From: Parcubacteria group bacterium
GTDB taxonomy: Bacteria > Patescibacteriota > Minisyncoccia > SW-4-49-11
Length of the DNA: 64,000 nucleotides
Assembly: GCA_943354045.1 (NCBI GenBank)
Contig: CALRBF010000002.1
Span: 60,726-124,725, forward strand
Direction of reading: 5' to 3'
Shown here: positions 2,944-57,880 of the stretch, piece by piece
Position numbering within the stretch: position 1 is the first letter of the stretch
Layout: each line of letters opens with the position of its first letter
Position numbers and translations under genes: made by a program
Notes under the pieces: model-generated
The model's input: only the letters and a program-made list of their open reading frames with translations
The model's database searches: none
What the model was told of the DNA's origin: nothing

Positions 2944-4485
2944 TTAACGAATCCTTTTATATAATGAATAGCCATTATGATTATCTATATCTTTCGGGAC
3001 TAAGACCCTCACACTATTAGGGGGCATATGTATAGTTAAAAATCCCGCATATCCACTTAATGGTTCAAATTCATCCGTTATTGGTAATAAATCTCTTAAC
3101 ATAGAAACTTCTATAACAGATCCATGTCGCCATTGTATATGCTCTGTCACTGATTTATCACTTGGATTAACCACAACTAATACTGTCTCAGCTACATAAT
3201 CAGTATATCTCTCAAAGGCAAATAATTGATGAGCTGTAGCTATACGAAAATCTCCTATACGTAAAGCTCGGTATTGTTTACGTAAGGCAATAAGTTGTGT
3301 CATCCAATTTAAATCAATATTATTTTGATCAACAAGACTCCAATCCATAGGACCGCGATTGGCTGGATCCCAACTACCAGTCATACCTAACTCAGAACCA
3401 TAATAGATATTAGGAGAACCCGGCAGAGTGAATTGTAATACTTGGGCAATTTTACGCTTAGATATATCTGGAATTCTTGTTGCAAGACGTTCTAAGTCAT
3501 GATTATCTAATAATAACCAGCTTTTGAACAATGATTCAATTCCAATATCTGCAACCATATGAGCTAACATAGAGGCTGCAGTAGAAGATTGAAGAGATCC
3601 CTCCACCAATAATATTATTAGACTACGTAAATGGTAATTCACAACACCATCCATTGCGGGTATCCATCCTGCTGGATATGTGATAATTTCGCCCACTATG
3701 AGAGATTCTGGGTTTTCTTTATGCGCAGCCTCAGTAAGTTCAGCGAGGAAATCATGTCCCAAGTCATAAGCAGTATCAAGTCGCCATCCATCAACTCCAT
3801 CACGTAAATAACTTCTTACTATCGAACTTTCTGATCTCCATAAATAGTCTCTTACTAAAGAATTTTCTAAATTTAATTCTGGTAAATTAAATTGCCCTCT
3901 CCAAATACGAGCCCCTCCAGGAATTTGAGTATCAAAAATAAACCAATCTCGCCATATACTCTCAGCATTCTGCTCAGCTTCCTGAAATTTACTTGCATTA
4001 CGCCCCATATGATTAAATACTCCATCGAGCACCAATTTCATATTTCGATTATGGAGAGTATTTGCCAATTCTTTGACATCTTCACGACTTCCAAGTTCGG
4101 GAGATATAGCCTCAAAATCTAGAGAATCATATTTATGATTCGTAAAACCAAGATGAATTGGATTAAGATATAATACTTCTACACCTAAATTCTGTATATA
4201 ATCAAGATTACTAATTAAACTAGTAATATCTCCTCCCCAAAAATCTAATTCCTGACTCCAAACTTTACAATTATCTATAAAATTTCCAGGTTGAGGCAGC
4301 TCATTCCAGCCACGCAATTGACGGGGTGAAGCATATAGTGATTTTTTAGCGTCAATATTAGCTGAAGGAGCAAAGCGGTCTACCAATACCTGATATACAA
4401 TAGCTCCATTACGCCAATCTACCTCTCTCTTGGTATAAATATCTATAAATTCACTCGTATCAATCTCAGCTGTATTTTGTTCCAT
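2944..4485 (-). CDS. GH13 alpha-amylase family glycoside hydrolase (neopullulanase/cyclomaltodextrinase-like)
   Basis: Conserved GH13 regions YLNPIHLG, GWRLDTAYDLGHDF, VGEII and LPGSPNIYYGSELGM. Confidence 0.8.
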   Translation of the reverse strand: MEQNTAEIDTSEFIDIYTKREVDWRNGAIVYQVLVDRFAPSANIDAKKSLYASPRQLRGWNELPQPGNFIDNCKVWSQELDFWGGDITSLISNLDYIQNLGVEVLYLNPIHLGFTNHKYDSLDFEAISPELGSREDVKELANTLHNRNMKLVLDGVFNHMGRNASKFQEAEQNAESIWRDWFIFDTQIPGGARIWRGQFNLPELNLENSLVRDYLWRSESSIVRSYLRDGVDGWRLDTAYDLGHDFLAELTEAAHKENPESLIVGEIITYPAGWIPAMDGVVNYHLRSLIILLVEGSLQSSTAASMLAHMVADIGIESLFKSWLLLDNHDLERLATRIPDISKRKIAQVLQFTLPGSPNIYYGSELGMTGSWDPANRGPMDWSLVDQNNIDLNWMTQLIALRKQYRALRIGDFRIATAHQLFAFERYTDYVAETVLVVVNPSDKSVTEHIQWRHGSVIEVSMLRDLLPITDEFEPLSGYAGFLTIHMPPNSVRVLVPKDIDNHNGYSLYKRIR

Positions 4486-12623: not shown

Positions 12624-13091
12624 TTATCTATTCAAATAGGTTATACTCACTTGTAATATAGTTGCAAAGGAAACCCAGAGTAAATAAGGAATACTAATAT
12701 AAGTCACCCATCTCAGATACGGCCAAATAGCAATCATAGCCCAAATAAGTGTAATCAATATCAATATTATATCGATAGAGGCTAATAGATTATTCCTTAG
12801 CCCAAATTGCAAAGGAGAGAAAGCTGCATTGAATACCAAATTCAATACAAAAGGTAAAGCTACCATCCAAGGAATTCTCCCTATAGCCACCTGATAGAAA
12901 ACCGTACCGAAACTCGCAAATATAATCAGATACAATATAGACCATACCGATCCGAATAAATAGGAAGGAGGAGCCCAGGACGGTTTGATGAGATTTTCGT
13001 ACCAATTATATGTACCCATAGTAGAATAGTTACCTATTGAGTTTATTATACCACAAACAGAGAAATTATATCTTCTGTAAGAATAATTCAA
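12624..13091 (-). CDS. tspO: TspO/MBR family tryptophan-rich sensory protein
   Basis: WYENLIKPSWAPPSYLFGSVWSILYLII...five TM helices. The alternative start at 13019 would avoid a 26-nt overlap with gpx. Confidence 0.7.
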   Translation of the reverse strand: MNYSYRRYNFSVCGIINSIGNYSTMGTYNWYENLIKPSWAPPSYLFGSVWSILYLIIFASFGTVFYQVAIGRIPWMVALPFVLNLVFNAAFSPLQFGLRNNLLASIDIILILITLIWAMIAIWPYLRWVTYISIPYLLWVSFATILQVSITYLNR

Positions 13092-13551
13092 TATCTTTCT
13101 TTATATCCATTGGATTTGTCGTAGGAGCATAACGATTAATAGTAAGTCCATCGGCAGAAACTAAAAATTTAGTAAAATTCCACTTTATGGCATCGCCCAA
13201 AATACCTGAATTAGCATGCTCTTTTAGAAATATAAATACTGGATGAGTATTTTTACCATTTACATCAATTTTTTCTGAAAGTAAAAAAGTAACTCCATAA
13301 TTGATCTGACATACATTTACTACCGTTTCATTACTCTCAGGTTCTTGACCCGCAAATTGATTACAGGGAAAGCCAATAACGGTTAAGCCCTTATCTTTAT
13401 ACTCTTGATGCAATTTCTCCAGATCCACAAATTGCGGAGCTAGACCACATTTGGTTGCCGTATTGACAAGTAAAAGAACTCGATTCTGAAATTGTTGCAT
13501 AGGAATTATATTCCCCGCAGTATCGTTAAAAGAAAGATCATAGAGTGACAT
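13066..13551 (-). CDS. gpx: Glutathione peroxidase
   Basis: LLVNTATKCGLAPQF (catalytic Cys), GFPCNQFAGQEP, WNFTKFLV. Confidence 0.9.
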   Translation of the reverse strand: MSLYDLSFNDTAGNIIPMQQFQNRVLLLVNTATKCGLAPQFVDLEKLHQEYKDKGLTVIGFPCNQFAGQEPESNETVVNVCQINYGVTFLLSEKIDVNGKNTHPVFIFLKEHANSGILGDAIKWNFTKFLVSADGLTINRYAPTTNPMDIKKDIELFLQKI

Positions 13552-13673
13552 AGTATTGAGTTTAGATATTATATATTTGTATTATATCATAAAAAGGAAA
13601 ATGGCGGGGATTTGCTCCTATCCACCCTCACCCTACGGGTACTTCCTCCAAAGGGAGACAAAAAACAATATAC

Positions 13674-13798
13674 CCTTCCCGAGTTCGAATCTGATAACTC
13701 CTTAAGGATTTCATACATTAATATAAATAAGAGTAAGAGATTCGGTCACAGATAATTTACCTGACGGTAAATTAGTAAGAGATTGCGAACTCGTCGTA
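13674..13798 (+). repeat. Degenerate copies of the tRNA-Ser 3' region: R1a cccttcccgagttcgaat (13674-13691) and two tRNA 3'-end fragments (13735-13750, 13779-13798)
   Basis: The 18-mer R1 recurs exactly at 14687-14704. agagtaagagattcg and gtaagagatt(g)cgaactcg match the tRNA-Ser 3' end at 14762-14785. Confidence 0.6.
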
Positions 13799-13812
13799 TT
13801 CAACTATATAAC

Positions 13813-14595
13813 CTATTTGCTAGAATCCACCCAACCAAGTAAGTATGCTTCTCCTCGAGACGTCCAATCAACACTAGCTGCTGTTGTTAATTGTATTTGT
13901 CTCTGAAAAACACCTTTAGTCAAATAGGGTTTGTTTCCTATGTTATTTGTGTTCTTTGCTTTTACAAAACCTGAATCTAGTCTAGCCTCATCTGGAGAAA
14001 TAAGAGAATTAGAAATATAGAGTTTTTGAGCTTCTTCTAAAGAAAGTTTTGTATTTATCTTAGTTTTAGAATCATATAGATAAATCTCTACGTCTGATTC
14101 TGAAGAGTCAGATGCTAATTGATTATTATTTATTGAATATTTTTCATAATTACACACTGCTTTTTTTGCCTGAAAAAGATAGTCACCCCTAGATTTAGGA
14201 CATGACATATATACAAAATTATATTCGGTATTCACAAAAAAAGATAGTATACCTTGTGGGTACCCCCCAAACATAAGAAATATTAACCAATATCCAAAAA
14301 AACCCACTGATACTATGGTGATAGCAATAGATTGAAAGAGAACAGAAAGAGAATAAAATTTCAATAATAAATAACTACATATAACAACTATTGAAATAAT
14401 ACCTACTATAGTAGTTGCATATACTATATATGATATAGCTGATGCAACTACTAATATATGTAAAAGTATTATTACTAATACAATATTAATAAGAAATACT
14501 GATAAAGAATAAGGTTTCTTCTTTGATTTTTCTAACTGAGGAGCATATTCCCCTCCAAAATTATTTGTTTGGGCTATCTTATCTTGTTCTACCAT
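13813..14595 (-). CDS. Hypothetical membrane protein (4 TM N-terminal, soluble C-terminal half) inside the repeat-bracketed islet
   Basis: ORF of 260 aa; no family recognised. Confidence 0.45.
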   Translation of the reverse strand: MVEQDKIAQTNNFGGEYAPQLEKSKKKPYSLSVFLINIVLVIILLHILVVASAISYIVYATTIVGIISIVVICSYLLLKFYSLSVLFQSIAITIVSVGFFGYWLIFLMFGGYPQGILSFFVNTEYNFVYMSCPKSRGDYLFQAKKAVCNYEKYSINNNQLASDSSESDVEIYLYDSKTKINTKLSLEEAQKLYISNSLISPDEARLDSGFVKAKNTNNIGNKPYLTKGVFQRQIQLTTAASVDWTSRGEAYLLGWVDSSK

Positions 14596-14729
14596 AATTT
14601 TTATATTATATATAATTAAATTATATCATGTTAGCTCATAATAAGTAAGATATTACAACCTCATCGCAAATAGGATTTTCTCCCCTTCCCGAGTTCGAAT
14701 TTCTCTTTACTAACTCACGGAAATTAAAA

Positions 14730-14761
14730 ATGGAGGCAAATGCCCCCATTTTTAATTTTAG
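14730..14761 (-). terminator. Intrinsic terminator downstream of tRNA-Ser
   Basis: Minus-strand GGGGGC-AUUU-GCCUCC hairpin followed by AUUUUUAAUUU. Confidence 0.55.
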
Positions 14762-14847
14762 CGGAGAGTAAGAGATTCGAACTCTTGATACCTTTCGGTA
14801 TACACGCTTTCCAAGCGTGCGCACTAGACCAACTATGCGAACTCTCC
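14762..14847 (-). tRNA. tRNA-Ser (anticodon GGA), class II with long variable arm; CCA not encoded
   Basis: Manual fold. Acceptor GGAGAGT/ACTCTCC 7 bp, D-stem GCA/TGC. Anticodon stem CACGC/GCGTG with loop TTGGAAA. Variable arm ATACC-GAAA-GGTAT. T-arm AAGAG-TTCGAAT-CTCTT, discriminator G. Confidence 0.85.
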
Positions 14848-14931
14848 ATTATCTTGATTATTTTATCAGATATTTACTTTATTGACTAGAGTTATATATC
14901 AGTTTAATATAGATTTATACTAAATTATTTT

Positions 14932-15189
14932 ATGAATACACAAGATATTGTTATTACTATTGCCAGTATTATTATTTCTATCTCCCTAATCCCCCAAGTG
15001 ATATTAGGGTTTCAGACTAAAACTGGACCAGTAAGTTATTGGACTTCTATTCCCTATGCTCTATCGCTAACTGCTGTTGGTTTGTCTTTTGCGTCTCTGC
15101 AATTATGGTTATCTACTATTGTTACGGCTATTACGGTTATCTTGTGGTTTATTCTTGCTATTCAAAAATTTATTTATACAAAAAAATAA
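14932..15189 (+). CDS. SemiSWEET / PQ-loop sugar transporter (3-TM)
   Basis: 85 aa, three TM helices, PQ motif in TM1 (SLIPQVILGFQTK). Confidence 0.55.
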   Translation: MNTQDIVITIASIIISISLIPQVILGFQTKTGPVSYWTSIPYALSLTAVGLSFASLQLWLSTIVTAITVILWFILAIQKFIYTKK

Positions 15190-21589: not shown

Positions 21590-21640
21590 GAGGCTTTATC
21601 CCCCATTTATTTTTGTCTCCCTTTGGAGGAGGAAATTAAA
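21590..21640 (+). repeat. GC-rich repeat modules in the str-operon leader (GGAGGCTTTATCCCCCATTTATTTTT + GTCTCCCTTTGGAGGAGG)
   Basis: The 20-mer cctccaaagggagacaaaaa is identical at 13648-13667 (opposite orientation). Module 1 resembles the hairpin at 14741-14768. Confidence 0.55.
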
Positions 21641-21919
21641 TCTGTCCCTCGCTGGCGAGGGGGTACCGCTTTAGTGGTAGGTGTGGATGTTTTTTGAATT
21701 ATCCTCCTCCGTCGCAAATAAAATTTGCTCCTGTGAAACCTCTCGGTTTCCCAACCTTCCTCCACAGGAAAACTCCCGTTTTCCTGACACCTTTCCCCAC
21801 CTCCCCCAAGGGAGGACAGTACAAGTACTCATTGACCTGCGTCGGAATAATTTAATGTATAGTCACCTGTTATTGTAAATTGACAATATATACATATTGT
21901 GTTATGAATAAGGAGCTCT

Positions 21920-24017: not shown

Positions 24018-24773
24018 TTATACTAAGGCTGAGATAATATATTGGGTTATTAGGAAAGCCCCCATAATTATCATAAGTCCCACAACTGCATTCCTAATTC
24101 CATCCAAGGCCTGACCTACTTCTCCTGGATTAGAACTTGTCATATATTTAAATCCTGACATAACTAGAATAGCCACAGTAATAGTTCCTAATATTCCTAA
24201 CAGAGCATTAATAATACCCGCTATAAGGTCTGGGATACTATTGAACTTAATAGGATTAGTGAATCCTACACTTTGTGGAGCTGATGCATCAGATGTGTTA
24301 CCCCCGGAACCATTTGGAACTGTAGCAGAACCATCAGGAGCTCCTCCTCCATTTGGAACTGTAGTAGATCCATCGGGTGCTGTAGCTACTCCAGGATTTC
24401 CTGGTGGTTTTTTACTAATGTCACATCTCATAGGGTTACCTGTACTACCCACACTACAAGTTCCTAATTGTCCTCCTGACTTACAGGCATCTCCTGATTT
24501 ATAACAATCCTCCCAACCATTTGCGGTAGTATTACAGTACAGGGTATCACCCCCTGTAGCTCCTCTTCTATCACAAAACCCATTTGCAGTAGATGTTTGT
24601 ACAGGCCCCCCTGGTGCTGTAGGGGTTTTTGACTGATAAGTACAGGTAGCTCCATTTGATTTACCAGAACAAGCCGTATTTTGTGCCGCTGTATTATCTA
24701 CGGTCTGAGCAAAGCTATTCTGAGGGATAATTATTCCTATACCTAATAAAAGTGAAAAGATAATATATTTCAT
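24018..24773 (-). CDS. Type IV secretion system pilin-like protein (VirB2/TrbC-like, PF18895 style) with Cys-rich N-terminal ectodomain
   Basis: Signal peptide. Eleven Cys in the mature N-terminal part, then a Gly/Pro-rich linker. C-terminal pilin module IPDLIAGIINALLGILGTITVAILVMSGFKYMTSSNPGEVGQ..AVVGLMIIMGAFLITQYI: hydrophobic helix, G.xYxTSxxNP, hydrophobic helix. Confidence 0.65.
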   Translation of the reverse strand: MKYIIFSLLLGIGIIIPQNSFAQTVDNTAAQNTACSGKSNGATCTYQSKTPTAPGGPVQTSTANGFCDRRGATGGDTLYCNTTANGWEDCYKSGDACKSGGQLGTCSVGSTGNPMRCDISKKPPGNPGVATAPDGSTTVPNGGGAPDGSATVPNGSGGNTSDASAPQSVGFTNPIKFNSIPDLIAGIINALLGILGTITVAILVMSGFKYMTSSNPGEVGQALDGIRNAVVGLMIIMGAFLITQYIISALV

Positions 24774-24774
24774 A

Positions 24775-25188
24775 CTAATTTACATTTAATGGGATATTAA
24801 TACTAGCGGTTTCATCTGGAGGGAATACAAATCCTAATACGGCATTGGATGCGACAAAGGCAAAGAATATAATAAGTAGACCTATGATTGCATTTACCAT
24901 TCTTTTTTGAGCTGATTCAGCCTGCTTCTCATCTCCTCCTGCGGTTGCATATTCAAATCCTGCATATAGGAATATAATAAATATCACAATTCCAATAAAT
25001 CCTAATATCCACCTGATAATAATCGATACTGTCTCTATGAGGCTTGGTCCCTCAGCTATTCCAGTATTAATTGGGATTGTCCCAGGATCAGGGAGAGTAG
25101 CATCAGGGGCTCTCTGAGCTAAGGAAATATTAGAGCCCAATAAAAATCCTCCCATTAATAAAGCTATTATAATCAATAAGACTCTCAT
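24775..25188 (-). CDS. T4SS pilin-like protein (short paralog)
   Basis: Signal peptide plus IIRWILGFIGIVIFIIFLYAGFEYATAGGDEKQAESAQKRMVNAIIGLLIIFFAFVASNAVLGFVF. Confidence 0.65.
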   Translation of the reverse strand: MRVLLIIIALLMGGFLLGSNISLAQRAPDATLPDPGTIPINTGIAEGPSLIETVSIIIRWILGFIGIVIFIIFLYAGFEYATAGGDEKQAESAQKRMVNAIIGLLIIFFAFVASNAVLGFVFPPDETASINIPLNVN

Positions 25189-25282
25189 ATCTATTTTACT
25201 ATTCTATATATTACAAGTATATCAAGTATTCTATTATCTGACAAGAATACTATATTATTTGAATATGTATTCTCTAAACAAT

Positions 25283-25305
25283 AAAAAGGGATATAATCCC
25301 TTTTT
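25283..25305. terminator. Perfect palindromic hairpin aaaaagggat-ata-atccctttttt inside the pilin gene array (bidirectional intrinsic terminator)
   Basis: 10-bp stem flanked by A5/T5+ runs. Sits in the 144-nt gap after the 25333-25716 pilin. Confidence 0.6.
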
Positions 25306-25332
25306 ATTGTTTCATAGTATCTATCAATTTGA

Positions 25333-25716
25333 TTAATTTCCTGGGAATACGAATGACAATATTGCATTTGAAGCTACAAAGGCAAAGAATATAATAATAA
25401 GTCCAATTACAGCGTTAATCATTCGAGACTGTGCAGTTTTTGCTTTTCCTTCATCTCCACCAGCTGTTGCATATTCAAATCCTGCAAATAAGAAAATAAT
25501 GAATATTACGATTCCGATAAATCCTAATGCCCATTGAATAACTACTTGTACTGTAGCCACAAGGTCAGTAGATTGATAAGTACCAGCTACTTGAGGTATT
25601 TCACCTATAACTCTAGTATCTTTTACGGGAGTTGCAGCTCCAGCTAAAGTAGGTGCTAATAATAATACTGGTAATAATACTCTTGTTACTATTGATTTTA
25701 TCTTGGAGGTATTCAT
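25333..25716 (-). CDS. T4SS pilin-like protein (short paralog; likely the major expressed copy given the downstream terminator)
   Basis: C-terminal module about 80% identical to 24775-25188; the N-terminal mature region is divergent. Start MNTSKIKSIVTRVLLPVLLLAPTLAGAA chosen at 25716 (ORF-track 25767 adds 17 implausible residues). Confidence 0.6.
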   Translation of the reverse strand: MNTSKIKSIVTRVLLPVLLLAPTLAGAATPVKDTRVIGEIPQVAGTYQSTDLVATVQVVIQWALGFIGIVIFIIFLFAGFEYATAGGDEGKAKTAQSRMINAVIGLIIIFFAFVASNAILSFVFPGN

Positions 25717-25815
25717 AAGAATATCTATAATTATTAAATAATATGTCCTATAAGTACATATTATCATATAATATATACTTATGCAAGTAATAGCATTGTG
25801 GATAAGTATATTATA

Positions 25816-26154
25816 TTATAAGCCAAAGACAAATCCCAAGACTGCATTAGATACCACAAAGGCCAATCCTACGATAAAAACCCCTATTACTGCTGCTGTA
25901 ATTCTACTTATAGCTTCTTCGGTTTTTTTAGGATCTCCTCCTGCTGTTGCATATTGAAATCCTGAAAAGAGTATGAGAATAAATAATATTACCCCTATTA
26001 ACCCTAGGCTCCATCTTACAATAGTAGATACAAAGGTAAATATATCCCCTTGTTCTGTCACCCCAGTACCAGTAGGAATACCTAAAACGGGTGGCACAGA
26101 TTCCTGAGCTTTTGCTGTTGCTATGATAAAATTAGCTATAAGTTTTTCTAACAT
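25816..26154 (-). CDS. T4SS pilin-like protein (short paralog)
   Basis: IVRWSLGLIGVILFILILFSGFQYATAGGDPKKTEEAISRITAAVIGVFIVGLAFVVSNAVLGFVF. Start at 26154 (MLEKLIANFIIATAKAQ) avoids a 77-nt overlap with the upstream gene. Confidence 0.6.
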   Translation of the reverse strand: MLEKLIANFIIATAKAQESVPPVLGIPTGTGVTEQGDIFTFVSTIVRWSLGLIGVILFILILFSGFQYATAGGDPKKTEEAISRITAAVIGVFIVGLAFVVSNAVLGFVFGL

Positions 26155-26164
26155 ATATACGATA

Positions 26165-26812
26165 TTAAGACCCTGCTGCGAGCAAACCACTTGTGACAAA
26201 ATTAGTGATAAGGAATGCGCCCATGATAATAAGTAATCCAATCACGGCATTGGTAATAGCTCCTGTAGCAGCGGCTGTTTGACTAGCATTTCCAGAGGAT
26301 ATCATATAGAGATACCCTTGTAAAACTATGATTATAAAAAATACTGTTCCTAAAATTCCTAGTATCCAGCGTATAATATTAGCCACATATCCAATAAGTG
26401 TTCCCCCCGTATTAAGTCCTGATCCAGCATTTTTGAATTGATTCAAACCCTGGGATAGTCCAGTTGATCCACCACTTGTAGATGTTTCAGTTGGAGAATT
26501 TGGTTTCGTTGGGGTTTGTTTAGTATCTGTTGCAGGCTGTAATGTATTGGCTTTAGGTGCACATACAATTTCTGTTGCTTGATTCTGAATACATGCTTGT
26601 CCAGAACCACACTTAATAGAAGCATCTCCTGTACAAATACCCTTACTATCTGCTTGATTTGTTAAACATTTTGTAGCACCATCTACTGTTACACATACTT
26701 TTCCCGAGGTACAATCTAGTCCAGATCCACAGGCTGCTAAAGCATTATAGGTATTCCCCATAAATCCTATTACAAACAGAATTACTAAACTTGTTGATAA
26801 AATACATTTCAT
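26165..26812 (-). CDS. T4SS pilin-like protein with Cys-rich N-terminal ectodomain
   Basis: Signal peptide. Fourteen Cys (CGSGLDCTSGKVCVTVDGATKC...). Thr/Pro linker. Pilin module IIRWILGILGTVFFIIIVLQGYLYMISSGNASQ...AVIGLLIIMGAFLITNFV. Confidence 0.65.
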   Translation of the reverse strand: MKCILSTSLVILFVIGFMGNTYNALAACGSGLDCTSGKVCVTVDGATKCLTNQADSKGICTGDASIKCGSGQACIQNQATEIVCAPKANTLQPATDTKQTPTKPNSPTETSTSGGSTGLSQGLNQFKNAGSGLNTGGTLIGYVANIIRWILGILGTVFFIIIVLQGYLYMISSGNASQTAAATGAITNAVIGLLIIMGAFLITNFVTSGLLAAGS

Positions 26813-26842
26813 AATATCTATATTTAATTATTTTTAATTATA

Positions 26843-27949
26843 TCATCTTTTTCTTAATTTCCAAATAAATAATCCTAGTCCCCCAGCAAGAAATAGTATT
26901 CCTCCTATCAAAATAGCTATATTTCCGAATGTTTTAGATTTTGCTGGCTGTGTAGTTGTATTCGTATCAGGGGTAGGAGTATTGGTGGAGAGTAACACTG
27001 TTCCCTGCTCTTTTTTTGATAAATTATAAGTGGAGATTTGATTATTTTGATTAATCAATAGTTCATTTCCAGATTGTCCAATCGAATATATATCAGTAAC
27101 TATTGGATTTAATGATATATTTGATTGCTCCTGCCCTTGCAAATTATATTGTATCAAATTACCATTTGTAGTTAATACAGCTATCGTATCATTATTCAGT
27201 AATACAGCTTTCCTGTTACTCATATTAATACTACTTCCTACTTGATTACTACTCCAATCGAAAACTTTTATCTGACTATTATTATATTCCAAAAAATAAT
27301 TTAATTTTGGACTGGTTGAAATTTGATAATTACTACTTTTTTGGTATACAAAGTTTTTCTTATTACCAACAAGATACCCATCAACTAATGGGATTATTTG
27401 ATGGTCTTCATTTGCTATAATTTGTTTATTAATATCCACATTAGATGGTATATTAGAGTATAGAATATTAAATTTAGACAGATCATTGGTGGGAGCAACT
27501 GTGATATCTTTATTATTAAATACATATATAATTTCATTATCAGAATACCAGCCAACTAAATTAGTTTTATCATTTAGTTGTATTTTATTTTTTGTATTAA
27601 AATCATATACCCACCATTGATTATCGGGAGATTTTCTTGAACTATCAAAAAATGGTGCTTGATATTTTGGAAATGATATATTGGGAGGATAAAGTAACAT
27701 TTTAGATTGTTCAGGAGAAATTGATACTAAGTTAGTAGCAGAAGGTATTAAATCAAATATCTCTGACTTATCACCAGTAATAACATTTTGTTTCACAATA
27801 GCCCCTGCATATTGATCAAAATATAAAATTTCATTATTTACAGCAAAACTTGGATATAGGAAACTTGAGTATATACTGGTATCCGCATATACTGGAGAAA
27901 TAGAATAGAAAGATGCTATTAGTAAAAATAGACTTAAGATTTTATTCAT
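26843..27949 (-). CDS. Secreted N/Q/S-rich beta-propeller-like surface protein with C-terminal Thr/Pro stalk, TM anchor and KLRKR tail
   Basis: Signal peptide MNKILSLFLLIASFYSISPVYA (start 27949 preferred over 28042). Repeated aromatic-rich beta-strand segments. C-terminus TPTPDTNTTTQPAKSKTFGNIAILIGGILFLAGGLGLFIWKLRKR resembles a tripartite sorting signal but lacks LPXTG. Confidence 0.5.
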   Translation of the reverse strand: MNKILSLFLLIASFYSISPVYADTSIYSSFLYPSFAVNNEILYFDQYAGAIVKQNVITGDKSEIFDLIPSATNLVSISPEQSKMLLYPPNISFPKYQAPFFDSSRKSPDNQWWVYDFNTKNKIQLNDKTNLVGWYSDNEIIYVFNNKDITVAPTNDLSKFNILYSNIPSNVDINKQIIANEDHQIIPLVDGYLVGNKKNFVYQKSSNYQISTSPKLNYFLEYNNSQIKVFDWSSNQVGSSINMSNRKAVLLNNDTIAVLTTNGNLIQYNLQGQEQSNISLNPIVTDIYSIGQSGNELLINQNNQISTYNLSKKEQGTVLLSTNTPTPDTNTTTQPAKSKTFGNIAILIGGILFLAGGLGLFIWKLRKR

Positions 27950-27953
27950 ATTG

Positions 27954-29357
27954 TTATTTACATGTTTTAAATTTTTGATAGTTACTCCACACTCCATCAC
28001 AATAATTTCCTCCACAAGCTGATGAACCTGAACATGCCCCACAATAATCTCCTGCTACACAATCAGAACAAGCTCTGGACGAAAAATCTGAATATCCATT
28101 ACATTGACTAGAACATTTATTATATCGTTTTAAATGTTTCCCCATACATACAAGGGCATCTCTTCGATTTGTTCTACTTCCACTACATCCCAGCTCATTC
28201 CAGCTCGTTTGTAAAAATTGACCTGCTCCAGCTGCTCCAGATCCATTTTCATTTGGACAAGCATTAGGATTATTAAATGCTGCAGGACATTCTCTTTGCA
28301 TAATTCCAGCTAATAGTTCAGAAGGAACACCAGTCTGTAAACTAGCATTATTTAGATCAGCCTTAACCGAATCATTTAAACTTGCACAACTTATAGTTGA
28401 GGAGTTACTCCCTCCATTACCGAGCACACCTGATCCACCTCCATTTCCCCCATTATCATTAAAAGTGCTTGCAGTGTCACATTTTACCTCGAATACTTTA
28501 CCGGGTTGAAAAGTAAGTACCGCTGAGAAATTTTGTTCTTGGAAGCCAAGTCCTACTAATAAGAAACTGAATAGGAGAAAACTTGCCATTACGAGCAATA
28601 ATCCAATCACTGCATTGGTAATAATGCCATACCCCGTACTCACTCCCCCGGGATTACCAGCTGAAGTAAGTATATATACTCCACCAATTACAATACTTAA
28701 TACTGCTAGTGAAGCTAGTAGGCCCAAAGCAAAATTAAAGATGTCTCGAATTAAGATAAATATATCACAAATAGTACAATCTCTACTGGTACCACATTTA
28801 ACAAGTCCTGTTTCTGAATTGGTTGAGCTTCCGTTAGTTGTTCCAGCACCAGCATCACCTTCTCCAGGAATATTAGAACCAGTTGCACCCCCAGAGGTCC
28901 CAGCTTGGCTGCCTCCACCAGCATTAGATCCAGATGGTGAATTAGTGGTACCACCAATAGTTGCATTTTCTTTTATACATTTAAAATCACTACATTTAAG
29001 ACCTGCTACACATTCATTTCCATTCCCAGAACAAGATTGCCCCTCTGTTTTATTGCCTCTTGGACTGGAACAAACCTGATTAATACAGGCTAATCCATTT
29101 TGACAAGTATCACCTGAGCAGGATGATCCTAAGCTAGTACGACAAGTTAATCCTAAACCTGGATTATTTTTATCTTTCACTTGGCATTTTCCATTTAAAC
29201 GAGAAATCCCATTTTGAAATGTACAATTTTGCTCTAATGCTGTTGCCCCAGCACTACAGGATCCATCAGCTGTCTGAGCATAAGTAGATTTAATACTAAA
29301 AAATGAAGCTATTAGGAAGATTATACTAAAGACTATACCAAACTTTATATATTTCAT
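27954..29357 (-). CDS. Composite protein: Cys-rich ectodomain + T4SS pilin module + lytic transglycosylase (SLT/VirB1-like) domain + Cys-rich tail
   Basis: Signal peptide. Cys-rich EGF-like N-terminal region. Pilin module ICDIFILIRDIFNFALGLLASLAVLSIVIGGVYILTSAGNPGG...AVIGLLLVMASFLLFSFLL. Then ELLAGIMQRECPAAF...GAAGAGQFLQTSW, which resembles SLT-family E..S / GLMQ / AxGxMQ motifs. The C-terminal 80 aa hold about 14 Cys. Confidence 0.55.
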   Translation of the reverse strand: MKYIKFGIVFSIIFLIASFFSIKSTYAQTADGSCSAGATALEQNCTFQNGISRLNGKCQVKDKNNPGLGLTCRTSLGSSCSGDTCQNGLACINQVCSSPRGNKTEGQSCSGNGNECVAGLKCSDFKCIKENATIGGTTNSPSGSNAGGGSQAGTSGGATGSNIPGEGDAGAGTTNGSSTNSETGLVKCGTSRDCTICDIFILIRDIFNFALGLLASLAVLSIVIGGVYILTSAGNPGGVSTGYGIITNAVIGLLLVMASFLLFSFLLVGLGFQEQNFSAVLTFQPGKVFEVKCDTASTFNDNGGNGGGSGVLGNGGSNSSTISCASLNDSVKADLNNASLQTGVPSELLAGIMQRECPAAFNNPNACPNENGSGAAGAGQFLQTSWNELGCSGSRTNRRDALVCMGKHLKRYNKCSSQCNGYSDFSSRACSDCVAGDYCGACSGSSACGGNYCDGVWSNYQKFKTCK

Positions 29358-49136: not shown

Positions 49137-49468
49137 ATTATCCAAGAAGAATATAAGCTGGATTCTGTTAACTATAATTGCAAGCAAATATAGTTAGGCA
49201 ATCATTTATCTTGATATACTGTTACCAGTATATTCTTGGCGGCACTCTTTTCAATACAGAAAAGCACGGCCTTGCACCTGATAGGGTTTATCTCTTTTCA
49301 CCTTAGATGAGATATACTCAAATGTCTTGTTTCTGCGATACTATCCCGATTGAGCAAGCTCAATGATGGGTGTTACCCATTATCATTTATTACAAAGTAA
49401 TAGGTGTCCAGACTTTCCTCACTCACCATATTATGGATATGCGCGATTACCATTCTCCTTGGATACTC
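49137..49468 (-). ncRNA. rnpB: RNase P RNA (bacterial, reduced-size), ~330 nt
   Basis: Minus-strand sequence contains the P4 5' strand GUGAGGAAAGUCUGGAC (consensus GAGGAAAGUCCGGGCUC) and the P4 3' strand AACAGAAUCCAGCUUAU (consensus ACAGAAnCCGGCUUA). It also contains GGUGAAA and GGUGCAAGGCCGUGC elements. P1/P2 closes with 5' UAUCCAAGGAGAAU pairing 3' AUUCUUCUUGGAUA. Confidence 0.75.
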
Positions 49469-49507: not shown

Positions 49508-51337
49508 TTACTTACTAGAAGCAATATCAATAATATGAAGTTGTAATTCTCGATTACCACCCCATTCATTGATTTCTAGACGGAATACAAGATCAATAAT
49601 ATCATTGCGATGTAATTGATCCAGAACATAAGCAAAATTAAATCCAATAGCAGAAATAGTTAGTGGTCTCCCTGACTGAGCCTCTGATATTAATTGTAAT
49701 TTGATATGATTTTGTTCTTTTCCAAGTGGTTTAATATCAGTAATTCTTAATTGGCGTGCCAAAAATATAGGATTTGGATTTTGCATTCCAAATGGAGCTA
49801 ATTTATAAAAAGTATCATACAAATCCCAATCTATAGCTTCAGCAGATAATTCTATATCTATTTTTTTATAAGGAGATAAGGTATTAACATCAACTTGTGC
49901 ACGAATTTGACTTCTTAATGAGTCTTTTACCGCATCAGTTTGATGTGTATCAAAGGATAATCCTGCTGCCTGGCTATGTCCTCCTCCTGAAATAATAATA
50001 TCTTGCATATTTTGTATCGCCTCTGCAATATTGAATTCCGGAATACTCCTGACTGAAGCCACATTATGATGAGATTGTTCTTGATACAAAATTACTGGCC
50101 TATAATATTTTTCCACTAATCTTGAAGCGACTATACCTAATACTCCAATTGACCAATTTTTATCTCCTTCAAAAATAACTGATAATTGTGAAATATCCTC
50201 ATATTGAGCTAATTTTGCTTCTACTTCTTTTAATACCGTATCAGTCAGGCTTTTTCTATGATCATTGAGCTTTTGTAATTCTTGAGCTAATTGTTCTGCC
50301 TCATCTTTGTCTTGAGTAGTAAAAAGTTTAAAGGCTTGATTGGCATGAGCAATTCTTCCAGCTGCATTAATACGAGGAGCTATTTGGAATCCTACAGAAT
50401 AAACACTAATATTCGCTGACTCCACTCCATCAATTTCATCAACTTCCGCAATAATACCAGTTTCTTCAATCAAGGCCTGTAGACCTATATTTCGGGTCTT
50501 AGCGAGCACATATAAACCATATCTTGCCAAAATTCTATTCTCTCCCACAAGTGGCACCATATCTGCAATAGTTCCAATAGCAGCTAAATCTAATAGCCAT
50601 TTTTCATACCCTATGGGAATACCATCATACCCTATTTTAGTTCTAGCTTCACTCAAAAGTGCAGTAATAACCTTAAAGGCTAGTCCTGCTCCACATAAAT
50701 CTTTAAAGGGATAAGGGTCTCCTTTTCGCTTTGGAACAATAATTCCAAATGCTGGGGGCATTTCTTCTGGTACGGAGTGATGGTCTATGACGATAACATC
50801 AATTCCTGATTCTTGTATGATTTCAATTTCTTTAGCGCTTCTCACTCCACAATCAACAGTGATTACTATATTAGGTTTTTGAGACAAAATATAAGCAACT
50901 CCTTCATCTTTTAGTCCATATCCTTCTTTATGCCTATCCGGAATATACACTTGAACATAGGTATCAAATTCTGTAGTATCTGTATCTCCTAATTGAAATT
51001 TACTTTTTTGATTCAAAGCAAAGTATACAGTCTTAAGTCCCTGATATAGAATAGTACTCCCTGTCACTCCATCGGCATCATAATCTCCAAAAATAATAAT
51101 TTTTTCTTTTTTTTGTAAAGCCTCAATAATTTTATTTATGCTTTTTTGCATATCTAATATTAAAAATGGGTTCAATAAATCTTGATAATCAGCATTGATA
51201 AAATTATCAATATCCTTAGTATCCTGAATATCTCTATTCCATAATAATTGTAAAATAATAGGATTTAATTCGGGATAACTATTAATAATATCCTTTGTAA
51301 TAGCTGGCTGTATATGCCATTGATATTTTGATTTCAT
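49508..51337 (-). CDS. recJ: Single-stranded-DNA-specific exonuclease RecJ
   Basis: DHH motifs (IIFGDYDADGVTGSTIL, DHH at VIDHHS) and DHHA1 with GGGHSQAAG. Confidence 0.9.
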   Translation of the reverse strand: MKSKYQWHIQPAITKDIINSYPELNPIILQLLWNRDIQDTKDIDNFINADYQDLLNPFLILDMQKSINKIIEALQKKEKIIIFGDYDADGVTGSTILYQGLKTVYFALNQKSKFQLGDTDTTEFDTYVQVYIPDRHKEGYGLKDEGVAYILSQKPNIVITVDCGVRSAKEIEIIQESGIDVIVIDHHSVPEEMPPAFGIIVPKRKGDPYPFKDLCGAGLAFKVITALLSEARTKIGYDGIPIGYEKWLLDLAAIGTIADMVPLVGENRILARYGLYVLAKTRNIGLQALIEETGIIAEVDEIDGVESANISVYSVGFQIAPRINAAGRIAHANQAFKLFTTQDKDEAEQLAQELQKLNDHRKSLTDTVLKEVEAKLAQYEDISQLSVIFEGDKNWSIGVLGIVASRLVEKYYRPVILYQEQSHHNVASVRSIPEFNIAEAIQNMQDIIISGGGHSQAAGLSFDTHQTDAVKDSLRSQIRAQVDVNTLSPYKKIDIELSAEAIDWDLYDTFYKLAPFGMQNPNPIFLARQLRITDIKPLGKEQNHIKLQLISEAQSGRPLTISAIGFNFAYVLDQLHRNDIIDLVFRLEINEWGGNRELQLHIIDIASSK

Positions 51338-53577: not shown

Positions 53578-54207
53578 TTATTGTTTATACACAATTTTTT
53601 GTGTTATTTTTAGTGGTTTATTATCTTTTGAAACTTGTAATTCTAATCGATTCTCTCCATCTCTTAGAGATAAGACTATTTCAAACTTTCCATCTTCTTT
53701 GAGTATAACCTTTTGTCCATTCAAAGTCAATTGTCCTGCTCTTGATATATTTCCTGTCAAAGTATATTGGCTAGTTTGATTAATTTCATAAGTATCTTTA
53801 TTATTGAGTGTTAATACAGGTGTATACCCTAATTGATATACTTGTACACCTAGATATATTGTAATAATCAATCCTATAGTAATACCTATGGACATTCGCA
53901 TCATAGTATGACTAATAATGAGTTTAGGCTTTGTTTTTTGTTGATCTAATTGATGTATATAACTGTCATATTCTTGATGATATAATTCAATCAGAATATT
54001 ATATTTCAGTCCAAATACATAGCTAAGTCTTTTTATAATAGGAAAAGGTTGATTTAATGAAGTAAATTCATAATAATCCCCCTTTTCAAGAGCAATGAGG
54101 TATTTTTCTTCAACAGATAATTTATCCGCTAATTGTTCTGTGGTCAAATTAGACTTTAGCCTATATTTTGTCAATACATATCCTAATGTAATTTTCTCTT
54201 TACTCAT
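53578..54207 (-). CDS. HTH (XRE-type) membrane protein, RodZ-like
   Basis: N-terminal HTH (LTTEQLADKLSVEEKYLIALEKGDY), single TM, C-terminal beta-rich domain. Start at 54207 (MSKEK) gives an 8-nt overlap with ftsK instead of 68. Confidence 0.55.
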   Translation of the reverse strand: MSKEKITLGYVLTKYRLKSNLTTEQLADKLSVEEKYLIALEKGDYYEFTSLNQPFPIIKRLSYVFGLKYNILIELYHQEYDSYIHQLDQQKTKPKLIISHTMMRMSIGITIGLIITIYLGVQVYQLGYTPVLTLNNKDTYEINQTSQYTLTGNISRAGQLTLNGQKVILKEDGKFEIVLSLRDGENRLELQVSKDNKPLKITQKIVYKQ

Positions 54208-56353
54208 TTTCTTCAATATATCCATCTGTAAATACCTCTCTTGGTTTTGAACCTTCAGCAGGACCAACTATTCCTGCCTCTTCTAATTCATCCAATAGTC
54301 TAGCTGCCCTGGCATATCCAACTTTTAATCTTCTTTGCAATAATGATGCTGAGCCCTTACCTGTCTGTAATACTAAATCTTTTGCTTGCTCAAATAATGC
54401 ATCTGTTCCCTCTCCATAATCCACTCCCCCATCATGATATATTTGCTTTGGAGTATCAGCTTCTGTAATAGCAAGATTATATTCATTTTCCCCCTGACTT
54501 TTGAGCCATTCTACAACTGCTTTCACTTCATGTTCGGGTACAAATGCTCCTTGTATACGCTGTGGTTTCCCAAGATCACCTCCAAGGAATAACATATCCC
54601 CCATTCCTAATAATTTTTCGGCTCCCATCATATCCAAAACTGTTCTTGAATCTATTTGAGAAGCTACTTGAAAACTTACACGAGATGGTAAATTAGCTTT
54701 AATAAGACCCGTGATAACATCCGTAGAAGGTCTTTGTGTAGCAAGAATAAGATGTATTCCTACTGCTCTTGCCATTTGTGCAATACGTACAATAGAACCC
54801 TCAACTTCTTTTTTATGACTACTCATCAAATCAGCAAGCTCATCAATTACCACTACAATAAATGGCATTATTTCATATTCCGGCTCATTTTCATCAATTT
54901 TGAGAGAACCAGAGGCAACTTTTTCATTATAGGTAAAAATATTACGAGAACCAAGACGAGCTAATACTTCATAACGTCTTTCCATTTCTGTTACACACCA
55001 ATTAAGAGCATTCATTGCCTTATCAGGGCTTACAATAGCTGGAGTTAAAAGATGAGGAATACCATTATAAGTGGACAATTCTACTCGTTTTGGATCAATA
55101 AAGATGAATTTGAGTTTAGATGGAGGGTTTTTGTATAACATACTCAATATCATAGCATTCAATCCCATAGATTTACCGGCTCCAGTTGCTCCTGCAATTA
55201 ATAAATGAGGCATTTTTTCTAGCGGAAATACAATAACTTTATTCATCACATCAAGTCCAAGTGCAAGTGGTAAATGGAAATCATTCTCATTAAATTCTTT
55301 TGATTCAAAAATATTTCGAATTCTCACGGTAGCTCTTTTGGCATTTGGAGTCTCTACCCCCACATATGACATCCCTGGAATAGGTGCCTCTATACGAATA
55401 GCCTGAGCTGCCATTGCAAGAGCCAAATCACTTTGTAATGATGTAATACGAGATAATTTAATACCATTAGAAGGTCTCAACATAAATCGAGTCACTGATG
55501 GGCCAACATCTATTTTTCCCATTTCTACCTCAATACCAAATGTGGATAAAGTACTTTTAATAATGTCTGAACTTTTTTTGGTATCTCCACTTTGGGCGAC
55601 ATCATCTGATTTACCTTTTTCTAGTAAATCCACTGTGGGAAGATTGAATTGGCTTTCGGTCATCCATTCTGGAGTTTTAGGAATTACAGCACTTTTATCA
55701 GTAACTTTTTTGGGACTTAATTCATCTTCATCCTCTGAATCTTGATTAAATATTCGAGTGTTTTCTGGCTTTACCTCTGTGGTATCATTAGGATTAATTG
55801 CAATTGTGTTTTCAGTAGTATCAGGAGCAAATATTTCTTTTATCCAATCAAGAATACCATCAAGATGAATAGCTTGATTCATAACAATAATACCCGCCGT
55901 AATAAACCCTGTTATTAAGGCAATAAGACCTCCCCAATAGCCAAATATATATTGTACTCCTATACTTACATAATACCCTATATATCCACCCCCGATACTT
56001 TTTTTTGCCGCGCTTAATGATTCTTTTACATCCTGAAATTGTATTAATTGTATGAGTCCCAATAATAATAATAGACCAATAATTAATACAAATAGTTTAA
56101 AATAATATAATCCCCTATCCTTTGGGCGAGCTAATAATGTAAGACCTATATAAAGTAAGGCAAATGGTAATATAAATTTACCTATACCAAAAAGAAATCC
56201 AATACCCCCATTGAGCCCCCTTCCAAAAATACCAGCCGATGAAAAAAATGATAAGAAACTTAATAAAGCAAATGCAATTAATATAACGCCAACTATAGAT
56301 CTTTTAGCTTCTGATTTGATTTTGGGTTTTGTGGCTGTTTGCTTTTTTGGCAT
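54200..56353 (-). CDS. ftsK: DNA translocase FtsK/SpoIIIE
   Basis: N-terminal TM domain. Walker A IAGATGAGKS, Walker B VVVIDELADL. C-terminal gamma winged-helix (SASLLQRRLKVGYARAARLLDELEE). Confidence 0.9.
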   Translation of the reverse strand: MPKKQTATKPKIKSEAKRSIVGVILIAFALLSFLSFFSSAGIFGRGLNGGIGFLFGIGKFILPFALLYIGLTLLARPKDRGLYYFKLFVLIIGLLLLLGLIQLIQFQDVKESLSAAKKSIGGGYIGYYVSIGVQYIFGYWGGLIALITGFITAGIIVMNQAIHLDGILDWIKEIFAPDTTENTIAINPNDTTEVKPENTRIFNQDSEDEDELSPKKVTDKSAVIPKTPEWMTESQFNLPTVDLLEKGKSDDVAQSGDTKKSSDIIKSTLSTFGIEVEMGKIDVGPSVTRFMLRPSNGIKLSRITSLQSDLALAMAAQAIRIEAPIPGMSYVGVETPNAKRATVRIRNIFESKEFNENDFHLPLALGLDVMNKVIVFPLEKMPHLLIAGATGAGKSMGLNAMILSMLYKNPPSKLKFIFIDPKRVELSTYNGIPHLLTPAIVSPDKAMNALNWCVTEMERRYEVLARLGSRNIFTYNEKVASGSLKIDENEPEYEIMPFIVVVIDELADLMSSHKKEVEGSIVRIAQMARAVGIHLILATQRPSTDVITGLIKANLPSRVSFQVASQIDSRTVLDMMGAEKLLGMGDMLFLGGDLGKPQRIQGAFVPEHEVKAVVEWLKSQGENEYNLAITEADTPKQIYHDGGVDYGEGTDALFEQAKDLVLQTGKGSASLLQRRLKVGYARAARLLDELEEAGIVGPAEGSKPREVFTDGYIEENE

Positions 56354-56782: not shown

Positions 56783-57880
56783 TTATTTTATATTCATAAT
56801 CAAAGTATATTCACCTTGTTCTCCCTGACGAATAATACCTGATAATTCCATAATGGATAATATTGCCATCAAATCCATAATTTCTTGTGAGGTTTTCTCG
56901 GCTAATACTTCTATCACCATTGGCTCTTGTATCAAATACTGTATTATTACTTGTTGTTCTGGGCTAAATTCAGATAATGCAAAACTCGCTATAATTGCCT
57001 CAATATTAAATATATTCAAAATATCCTGAGTTTCAGTTACCAAATAAGCTCCCTGCTTAATAAGGGCATTTGTTCCTTCACTATTTTTCACATCAATATT
57101 ACCTGGTATAGCAAAAACATCTCTATTTTGCTCAAGAGCATATTGCACCGTTGTCATAGTACCACTTTTAATCGGAGCTTCTATTACTAATATTCCACGA
57201 GCGAGTCCACTCACAATACGATTGCGTAATATAAAATTCTCACGCCTTGGTTTACTCAAAGGAGGAAATTCACTAATCAAAGCACCTCCCCCAGCAATAA
57301 TAGCTTGAGCAAGTCTCTGATTTGATTGTGGATAAAGAGCCCTAGCGGATATACCTCCTCCCAATACCGCTATTGTTTTACTTTTACCATCAAGGCAGCC
57401 CCTATGAGCAATACTATCAATACCAAGGGCAAGTCCACTAATAATTGGGAGCCCCAGCTCCGACAATTCTTTACTCATTTTCTCTGCGATATGAGCTCCA
57501 TAATTGGTATATTTGCGAGTACCCACAATAGCAAGAGCATTATCTATACCTGTAATATCTCCCTTTATATATAATACTATTGGGGGTACAGCAATTTGAG
57601 ATAATCTCTCAGGGTAATCAGCATCTCCAAAAGCAATTACATGTATTCCTTCTGATTGTAAATATTTCTCTTCTTGTATAAGAAAATTATCTTTATCTAA
57701 TGATTCAAACTCAGTATACCAATCAAATTTTGTTCTTGGGGAAAAAATTTTCTTAAAATCTTCTAAGACACCTTCCCTCCATAATTTTTCTGCCCCTATC
57801 TTCTGAATAGCAGATAAAGCCTTTGGACCAATTTGAGGAAATGTATTAAAACAATGTAAACTCAAGGCTTTAATATTCAT
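56783..57880 (-). CDS. dprA: DNA processing protein DprA (Smf)
   Basis: Rossmann-fold DprA core (IVGTRKYTNYG, GLALGIDSIAHRG, GTMTTVQYALEQNRDVFAIPG). Confidence 0.85.
   Translation of the reverse strand: MNIKALSLHCFNTFPQIGPKALSAIQKIGAEKLWREGVLEDFKKIFSPRTKFDWYTEFESLDKDNFLIQEEKYLQSEGIHVIAFGDADYPERLSQIAVPPIVLYIKGDITGIDNALAIVGTRKYTNYGAHIAEKMSKELSELGLPIISGLALGIDSIAHRGCLDGKSKTIAVLGGGISARALYPQSNQRLAQAIIAGGGALISEFPPLSKPRRENFILRNRIVSGLARGILVIEAPIKSGTMTTVQYALEQNRDVFAIPGNIDVKNSEGTNALIKQGAYLVTETQDILNIFNIEAIIASFALSEFSPEQQVIIQYLIQEPMVIEVLAEKTSQEIMDLMAILSIMELSGIIRQGEQGEYTLIMNIK

Follow-up and report, generated by a model that had tools for sequence, protein, structure and literature searches.

The interval between a glutathione peroxidase gene (gpx) and the gene for tRNA-Ser(GGA) is a flexible gene slot in the 64,000-nucleotide stretch analysed here (the window), which comes from the tiny genome of a groundwater bacterium, a member of the Paceibacteria in the candidate phyla radiation (CPR), and has a G+C content of 34.6%. 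In the window this slot holds a 1-kb insert with a single gene, open reading frame (ORF) 260, bracketed by two nested pairs of direct repeats. As the most plausible of the explanations considered, we tentatively read the interval as a micro-island seeded by the tRNA gene, which would have been made by recombination at the T-loop and 3' end of that gene, later shuffled between repeats, and is now non-autonomous.

One pair of repeats is an exact 18-mer, CCCTTCCCGAGTTCGAAT, with exactly two occurrences within the 64 kb (R18-A and R18-B in Table 1). A preliminary description of this DNA had reported the two exact copies, with coordinates that were off by 1 and 4 nt. None of 100 shuffled sequences reached two matches with three mismatches tolerated, and the longest exact direct repeat in the shuffled 1.6-kb region was at most 14 nt compared with 18 nt in the real one. 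The other pair is a 15-nt copy of the tRNA gene from T-loop to acceptor, in which P1 matches 14765-14779 at all 15 positions. P1 covers the 3' strand of the acceptor, the T-stem and half of the T-loop, and the match ends within the T-loop. A second copy of the tRNA tail (AGTAAGAGATTGCGAACTCG, 13774-13793) has one base inserted in the T-loop. The preliminary description had placed tail copies at 13735-13798 and had missed the third, P3. It had also pointed out that the 18-mer resembles a T-arm in the opposite orientation, and there is indeed a perfect inverted match of 12 nt between the 18-mer and the tRNA T-arm (GAGTTCGAATCT and AGATTCGAACTC, repeat I12). A comparison of the two flanks gives a global alignment of 13552-13812 with 14596-14860 at a z score of about 5 over shuffles, and in the shuffle tests the similarity of the repeats was far above chance. 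A degenerate duplicate of the terminator, claimed at 13594-13620, had to be abandoned: the stretch in question (GGGATTTGCTCC...) matches the module stub at 14667-14682 and not the hairpin at 14721-14758.

Relatives were collected through the AcrB-like protein encoded beside the slot (five sister species, labelled Paceibacteria, Parcubacteria or Saccharibacteria) and through look-ups of exact proteins and homologues of the neighbouring ORF85 (about 20 further loci), giving about 25 related loci overall. Their intergenic DNA was split into named segments, each of which was mapped in every locus. The tRNA-Ser(GGA) gene is at the same place in all related loci and 98.9-100% identical across all relatives. 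Two other species have an empty site, of a different type in each. In L005 the order is gpx-S1-18-mer-T1-tRNA, and the window without positions 13691-14700 is colinear with this site (202 of 234 positions identical, 86%). In L045/L046 the order is gpx-short S1-18-mer-S2-tRNA. A gene-less variant, L020, comes from the same species as the window, and its colinearity with the window was taken from the segment map. The preliminary description would have been contradicted by relatives that all shared the window arrangement; empty variants were found both outside and within the species.

Other relatives carry different cargo, namely ORF153 (L004), ORF227 (L006), ORF223 (L027), ORF376 (L031), restriction-modification and ABC-transporter operons (L018), or restriction-modification, zeta-toxin and NUDIX genes (L082 and L084). 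In AcrB DNA, contigs L019-L028 share 99.0-99.9% identity with the window, yet they display at least five arrangements. Seven of the ten same-species contigs with ORF85 (L020-L025 and L028) stop at the hotspot, within about 550 nt of ORF85. Assemblies evidently break here, an independent sign of population heterogeneity. Four independent assemblies (L001/L026, L002, L003 and the window) contain the window arrangement itself.

The segment map also shows how the arrangements relate to each other. To the left of the 18-mer stands S1 or M, the middle part of the conserved module described below, and to the right S2 or T1. All four pairings exist (S1|T1, M|S2, S1|S2 and M|T1) with the switch exactly at the 18-mer, which is the pattern of attB, attP, attL and attR sites. 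Since S2 sits between the 18-mer and the tRNA gene in L045/L046, it is an alternative native tRNA trailer. The order P1 followed by S2-18-mer-S1-gpx in the window is the native trailer arrangement of L045, and the position of S2 after P1 seems to fit the expected look of a displaced original tRNA tail. In many species the P sites reach the exact end of the tRNA gene plus 2-7 nt of trailer (TTGCGGAGAG...) and lose identity or gain one base within the T-loop. The tail copies include trailer bases and were therefore copied from genomic DNA, not from mature tRNA. P2 is a recombination junction common to three strain arrangements, with neighbours that differ among the window, L019 and L027, and ORF260 is placed between P2 and P3. 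S1 is kept beside gpx in the empty site L005; its own fold is not significant (z -0.24). A primer-binding site, complementary to the tail of a mature tRNA, was considered for the tail copies and rejected, as they hold genomic trailer bases and not CCA.

The T-loop and 3' end of tRNA genes are a classic target of tRNA-specific tyrosine integrases. In a tRNA-seeded micro-island, DNA segments would have been joined into the tRNA gene by recombination that breaks in the T-loop or 3' end, and every event would have pushed the old tRNA tail and its trailer farther from the gene by accretion. The resulting T-arm-like repeats, with tail copies facing one way and 18-mers the other, may then have acted as crossover points for deletions, duplications and swaps. 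The repeats, the empty sites and the strain-level turnover show that recombination has taken place here; the differing cargo and the absence of a linked integrase are observations as well, and both site-specific catalysis and this order of events are our inference. The recombinase would be an unlinked one that acts in trans, acts transiently or no longer acts, and because it is not linked the islet would be a non-autonomous passenger or scar and not an active element. The homology of the tail copies breaks where T-loop-targeting integrases cross over; the Ms6 integrase is an established case of attB sites in the T-loop (PMC1762012). The pattern fits the tRNA-seeded islands of streamlined Prochlorococcus genomes, in which partial tRNAs are scattered and a resident element is mostly missing (bioRxiv 10.1101/2020.12.28.424599).

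Several observations weigh against this reading. Neither the 50 ORFs of the window nor the gene tables of the about 25 related loci showed a domain of an integrase, recombinase or transposase, and the insert, as already noted in the preliminary description, has one membrane-protein gene and no integrase. No donor or attP was found either; viral contigs scanned with the 18-mer, the module, S2 and the tRNA half yielded no relevant match. The 18-mer had five chance matches in high-GC contigs with no tRNA context, and a 19-mer of the tRNA tail was found in 34 contigs, in all cases inside intact phage tRNA-Ser genes. A metagenome scan with the P pattern returned a single locus, L018. The tRNA-proximal block up to the nearest tail copy (T-18-mer-M) is conserved and the variable genes begin past the tail copy, which is the opposite of the simple expectation that the newest insert lies next to the tRNA. 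The junctions on the gpx side lie at differing positions (L004, L006 and L031), and this scatter looks like microhomology and not like a fixed crossover. The ends of the insert resemble another allele of the same locus and not foreign DNA, and the slot across the tRNA gene uses an unrelated direct repeat of 26-29 bp. The footprint of integration or excision at a tRNA gene that was proposed initially thus stands in part: it fits the empty sites and the repeats, but its site-specific character is deduced, with neither integrase nor donor found and with breakpoints on the gpx side that are not fixed.

Variable junctions, a conserved block, an unrelated repeat and a missing integrase and donor are all explained by a replacement-type island without site-specific recombinase, in which the cells would take up DNA from related strains and recombine it by RecA. 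The homology arms would be the invariant tRNA gene, the conserved module and ORF85/AcrB on one side and gpx/TspO on the other, and occasional unequal or homology-facilitated illegitimate events would stack two trailer alleles and so give rise to the direct repeats of the 18-mer and the tRNA tail. It agrees with this model that 18-mer-S2-P1 and 18-mer-T1-tRNA tail are alternative native trailer alleles, each present singly, in L045 and L005 respectively, that the conserved arms stop sharply at the module boundary and that DprA and RecJ are encoded in the window. However, the stretches of identity, 15-18 nt, are short by the standards of RecA, and all four flank pairings meet precisely at the 18-mer. 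Moreover, the exact tRNA end is the starting point of several independent tail copies that break within the 7 nt of the T-loop; random illegitimate joints would rarely do so, and replacement with stacking does not explain these breaks. We regard this model as a serious rival, though a less likely one than the tRNA-seeded micro-island.

The 18-mer is one end of a constrained module and not merely a scar or a crossover core. The usual order in relatives is the tRNA gene, a hairpin spacer and then a unit with the 18-mer at its near end and a P site at its far end. Read on the plus strand, it is P-M-R18, about 105 nt long and rich in hairpins, and its ends are a tRNA-tail copy and the 18-mer. When two clades are compared, the identity is 98.9% in the tRNA gene, 92% in the module, 56% in the spacer between module and tRNA and 49% in the DNA immediately past P; for the AcrB genes it is about 70% over all nucleotides and 42-47% at fourfold-degenerate sites, which are saturated. 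The clade-specific substitutions in the module alignment suggest vertical descent under constraint and not recent spread. The consensus folds into a four-way junction with three hairpins, in which changes are few and mostly pass through G-U pairs on the minus strand, that of the tRNA. The closing stem of P with R18 is mixed, with G-U pairs on the minus strand in L008, L082, L084 and L086 and uncompensated changes in L035 and L018, and covariation support for this long stem was not accepted.

In the window the module is largely deleted, lacking about 65 nt with two hairpins compared with relatives. R1, a covariance model built from nine sequences, aligns this decayed copy (14632-14724) at 55 bits with 51 interior model positions missing. 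The same model finds a second copy of the module core at 21711-21796 on the minus strand (62 bits, E about 1e-15), the ends of which differ. It sits within the right arm of a palindromic, G+C-rich element (about 21612-21821) between rpsL and ORF382, upstream of rpsL, and retains hairpin A through a compensatory change and an added pair. The same nesting of a module core in a palindromic element was seen in L083 (11350-11600) and L007 (8940-9110). Another unit of this layout, with a tRNA-tail copy, hairpins, a T-arm-like core and a hairpin, is found in L020 (168-334) and L018 (6925-7080). It folds well on the strand of the tRNA (-60.5 kcal/mol, z -4.7), and its hairpins differ between both loci by compensatory changes. 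A known RNA family or a pseudo-tRNA was considered and rejected: Rfam 15 was compared at gathering thresholds with the window and with six loci, and permissively with the module regions, and only chance-level matches came up; the tRNA model had no match at E up to 5-10 in L007, L006 and L020.

It is conceivable, if improbable, that P-M-R18 is a structured element of Paceibacteria that has not been described before and is under strong constraint, whether as a small RNA or as a folded-DNA site. Its T-arm-mimicking ends would then delimit a landing pad next to tRNA-Ser(GGA) for the exchange of promoter-plus-gene cassettes, with no linked integrase involved. As a rival explanation of the islet, the module would itself be the functional unit, either as a structured RNA co-oriented with the tRNA or as a folded-DNA recombination site whose stem mimics the T-arm duplex, and it would mark the landing pad by a logic like that of integron attC sites or Xer-dependent dif modules. 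The identity of the module compared with its surroundings and with the fourfold sites, the four-way junction with changes through G-U intermediates and the hairpin A preserved in the paralogue at 21711-21796 all argue for this reading, as does the fact that cargo always begins just past P with a promoter alongside. On the other hand, double changes were seen at only 3 of 37 pairs, the closing stem is uncompensated in two loci, the fold of single sequences has a z score of only about -2, and neither an Rfam match nor a conserved promoter was found. A terminator-like hairpin lies between module and tRNA in most lineages, the cargo has its own promoters, there is one module per array, no linked recombinase was found, and the window retains little of its module. 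We rate this rival reading as quite improbable.

An old tandem or segmental duplication of the tRNA-Ser 3' end with its trailer, or a decayed whole tRNA-Ser gene, with ORF260 merely lying between the copies, is very unlikely. Both copies have one order of segments, from the 18-mer through a hairpin-bearing spacer to the tRNA tail, and are spaced by 1010-1039 bp; the flanks align globally at a z score of about 5, and tandem tRNA-Ser genes are common elsewhere. However, presence and absence vary among strains that are 99-99.9% identical, and the allelic counterparts in L005 and L045 also argue against a duplication, which the preliminary description had offered as an alternative. In addition, the tail copy is just 15 nt with sharp edges, the 18-mers are identical between unrelated flanks, and the tRNA covariance model detects no pseudo-tRNA at E up to 10 in comparable regions of relatives, only the true tRNA being recognised. 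Chance similarity, or an assembly chimera across the repeats, is scarcely credible, given that the shuffle tests were passed and four independent assemblies agree, even though the source is a metagenome-assembled genome and assemblies often break at this locus.

ORF260 is probably a real but rare gene. Its hydrophobic N-terminal block (amino acids 26-112) suggests 3-4 membrane helices, and beyond this N-terminal third it has a soluble C-terminal domain. ORF260 has no match in Pfam or PADLOC, and a search of 5.8 billion proteins found only ORF260 itself. A full HMMER scan of 1.8 billion representative proteins gave eight weak remote relatives (E 2e-9 to 1e-3). The nearest of these, P0023, is found on short contigs only, with no module or tRNA signal around it. 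The G+C content of ORF260 is 29.6% compared with 34.6% for the window, and 17% compared with about 24% at third codon positions. Its final codons and stop are encoded by a remnant of the module and of the palindromic element PE-1 (ATTTGCTAGAATCCACCC, 13813-13832; repeat D3 at 13815-13832), as seen by comparison with 13610-13627, and rearrangement has therefore shaped the 3' end of the gene. A defence island was considered for ORF260 and the other single cargo genes and rejected, as they have no PADLOC or Pfam matches.

The islet shares traits with several known systems. As in integrative elements, it lies on the 3' side of a tRNA gene, with a direct repeat of the 3' part of the tRNA (13730-13744 and 14765-14779) and two partial copies, and empty sites exist in L005, L045/L046 and L020; a tyrosine or serine integrase was found neither in the 50 ORFs of the window nor in the about 25 related loci. 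Williams 2002 is reportedly a source, alongside the work on Ms6, for integration of phages and integrative and conjugative elements (ICEs) into the tRNA T-loop. The islet is similar to such integration, exemplified by mycobacteriophage Ms6 in tRNA-Ala (PMC1762012), in its block of identity, which begins in the T-loop and continues just past the tRNA 3' end, with the break inside the T-loop, but differs in that no phage or attP was found and in the size of the inserted units (0.17-1 kb). A phage or plasmid origin was rejected since the viral-contig scans for the 18-mer, the module, S2, the tRNA 3' half and the tail were all without a donor.

The islands driven by tycheposons in Prochlorococcus (bioRxiv 10.1101/2020.12.28.424599) are likewise found in a streamlined genome, abut a tRNA gene and contain partial copies of the tRNA 3' end; they mostly lack a resident element, differ between strains and carry accessory or defence-type cargo. 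In contrast to them, no variant of the present locus has an integrase-bearing element, the size is about 0.2-8 kb and not tens of kb, the DNA nearest to the tRNA is a conserved module and not the most variable part, and an inverted T-arm-like 18-mer is repeated as well. Cis-mobilizable elements (CIMEs) are integrated elements that retain attL and attR and have lost their genes for integration and transfer (ICEberg 2.0, PMC6323972). The att-like direct repeats, the lack of integrase and transfer genes and the tandem accretion at one site are similar here, but the repeats are partly degenerate and their att function is putative. No autonomous element that shares the att site, as is characteristic of CIMEs, was found in viral contigs, in one metagenome scan or in the related loci.

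Replacement flexible genomic islands maintained by homologous recombination, reportedly described by Lopez-Perez et al. 2014, also have differing genes between conserved flanks in close relatives and no mobile-element genes. Unlike those islands, the insert described here is bracketed by direct repeats of the tRNA tail and the 18-mer, which would not be expected from a simple double crossover. Integron cassettes (attC) and Xer-dependent dif modules have one or a few genes per unit and hairpin-rich boundary sites with imperfect inverted repeats in both orientations, as here. They differ from the present locus, which has no linked IntI or Xer, no consensus of GTTRRRY or dif type, cargo with its own promoter and one conserved module per locus. 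Integron cassettes have no promoters, stand in arrays next to an IntI gene with attI and each end in an attC site delimited by RYYYAAC and GTTRRRY; the module ends AGAGATTnCGAACTCG and CGAGTTCGAAT contain no GTTRRRY. A dif/Xer site was rejected: there is no evident likeness to the dif consensus, and the window has an FtsK gene and no Xer gene. Compared with miniature inverted-repeat transposable elements, the P and R18 ends are inverted repeats, found at the tRNA locus only, and no short target duplication was seen.

The coordinates of the main features are collected in Table 1. On the minus strand downstream of tRNA-Ser(GGA), the sole tRNA that ARAGORN found in the window, the order is ORF260, gpx and the TspO gene, and the AcrB-like transporter gene is on the same side of the tRNA as ORF85. 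The hairpin directly after the tRNA folds on the minus strand at -22.5 kcal/mol (z -6.5) and is only 56% conserved between clades. The window also encodes functions relevant to DNA uptake and recombination, with several ORFs that have type IV secretion pilin domains, DprA, RecJ and FtsK (gamma domain), in addition to an RNase P RNA.

Table 1. Features of the tRNA-Ser(GGA) locus and related elements (window positions unless a related locus is named)
Feature	Position	Strand	Remarks
tRNA-Ser(GGA)	14761-14847	minus	ARAGORN; Rfam tRNA 55.3 bits; CCA not encoded; seeds the variable region
gpx (glutathione peroxidase)	13066-13551	minus	downstream of tRNA-Ser, same strand
ORF260	13813-14595	minus	single gene of the islet
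Promoter-like site of ORF260	14605-14634	minus	CTAACA-18-TATAAT, 10/12; consensus match only
ORF85 (small membrane ORF)	14932-15189		other side of tRNA-Ser
Islet by 18-mer repeats	13691-14700	.	1010 bp, one repeat included
Islet by P1 and tRNA repeat	13745-14764
R18-A, 18-mer copy A	13673-13690	plus	left direct repeat of the islet
R18-B, 18-mer copy B	14683-14700	plus	right direct repeat of the islet; conserved end of the decayed module
P1 AGAGTAAGAGATTCG	13730-13744	minus	repeat D4; copy of 14765-14779
P2 AGTAAGAGATTGCGAACTCGTCG	13774-13796	minus	tRNA-tail-like module end; one extra T-loop base
P3	14643-14666	minus	19/24 (79%) copy of tRNA-tail-like module end; abuts ORF260 promoter; repeat D6, R1 alignment
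S1	13607-13672	plus	module stub GGGATTTGCTCC fused to right arm of PE-1
S2	13691-13718	plus	between 18-mer and tRNA in L045/L046
S3	13745-13773	.	8-bp hairpin segment; part of G2 unit in L020, L019, L027, L018
M' stub CAAATAGGATTTTCTC	14667-14682	minus	16 nt of conserved module interior
G+C hairpin flanked by A/U, part of T1	14721-14758	.	inverted repeat I2; directly after tRNA 3' end; bidirectional terminator-like
Module examples	L006 6802-6906; L043 7658-7763; L082 7502-7607		others exist
Second slot in relatives	L019 5715-5960; L031 7715-7960; L006 7070-9602; L033 5424-7959
Third slot in relatives	L019 3192-4461; L006 3577-5312; L031 2754-5475
PE-1 elsewhere	L035 8300-8460 and 12431-12469; L043 7400-7545; L019 5745-5930
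Mini-element	L007 425-515; L019 5230-5320; L018 3700-3800; L004 9376-9470; L045 7740-7830		inverted in L004
Pilin-domain ORFs, DprA, RecJ, FtsK, RNase P RNA	24018-29357; 56783-57880; 49508-51337; 54200-56353; 49138-49462		regions given jointly

Two further variable slots were seen nearby. Between tRNA-Ser and ORF85, a direct repeat of 26-29 bp (TTATCAGATATTTACTTTATTGACTAGAG), present as a single copy in the window (14863-14891), brackets in relatives either a palindromic element of 221 bp or a cluster of 2.5 kb that includes two methyltransferases. The junction between TspO and gpx (about 13020-13066 in the window) holds a glyoxalase gene and unknown genes in relatives, and in L019 a tail-like remnant, AGAGAATGAACTCGTCGCAAATAGGAG, lies in this slot at 4431-4460. 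PE-1 is a dispersed palindromic element (GTCCTCCTTTGGAGGAGGTGG ... CCTCCAAAGGGAGAC), whose right arm is found in S1 of the window (13620-13665). A G+C-rich mini-element of about 90 nt with terminal inverted repeats (CAATACCCCTA ... TAGGGGTATTG) occurs in relatives at varied sites within the module or close to it, in either orientation, and is absent from the window.

CPR bacteria, or Patescibacteria, have tiny genomes with few recognised mobile elements, and the gain and loss of accessory genes is poorly understood in them. The site described here is a genuine flexible gene slot beside a tRNA gene. Its kind is broadly known, but not known to have been described in this lineage or at this scale, and it has no linked recombinase. 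It shows turnover of genes at strain level at a tRNA gene with no resident recombinase, with cargo that includes restriction-modification, toxin, transporter and orphan genes, and it offers a concrete, alignable locus at which population data could separate site-specific from homologous gene exchange. The locus also brings to light a non-coding module of unusual conservation and a family of hairpin-rich repeats, so far unannotated, and this boundary module is the part most worth following up.

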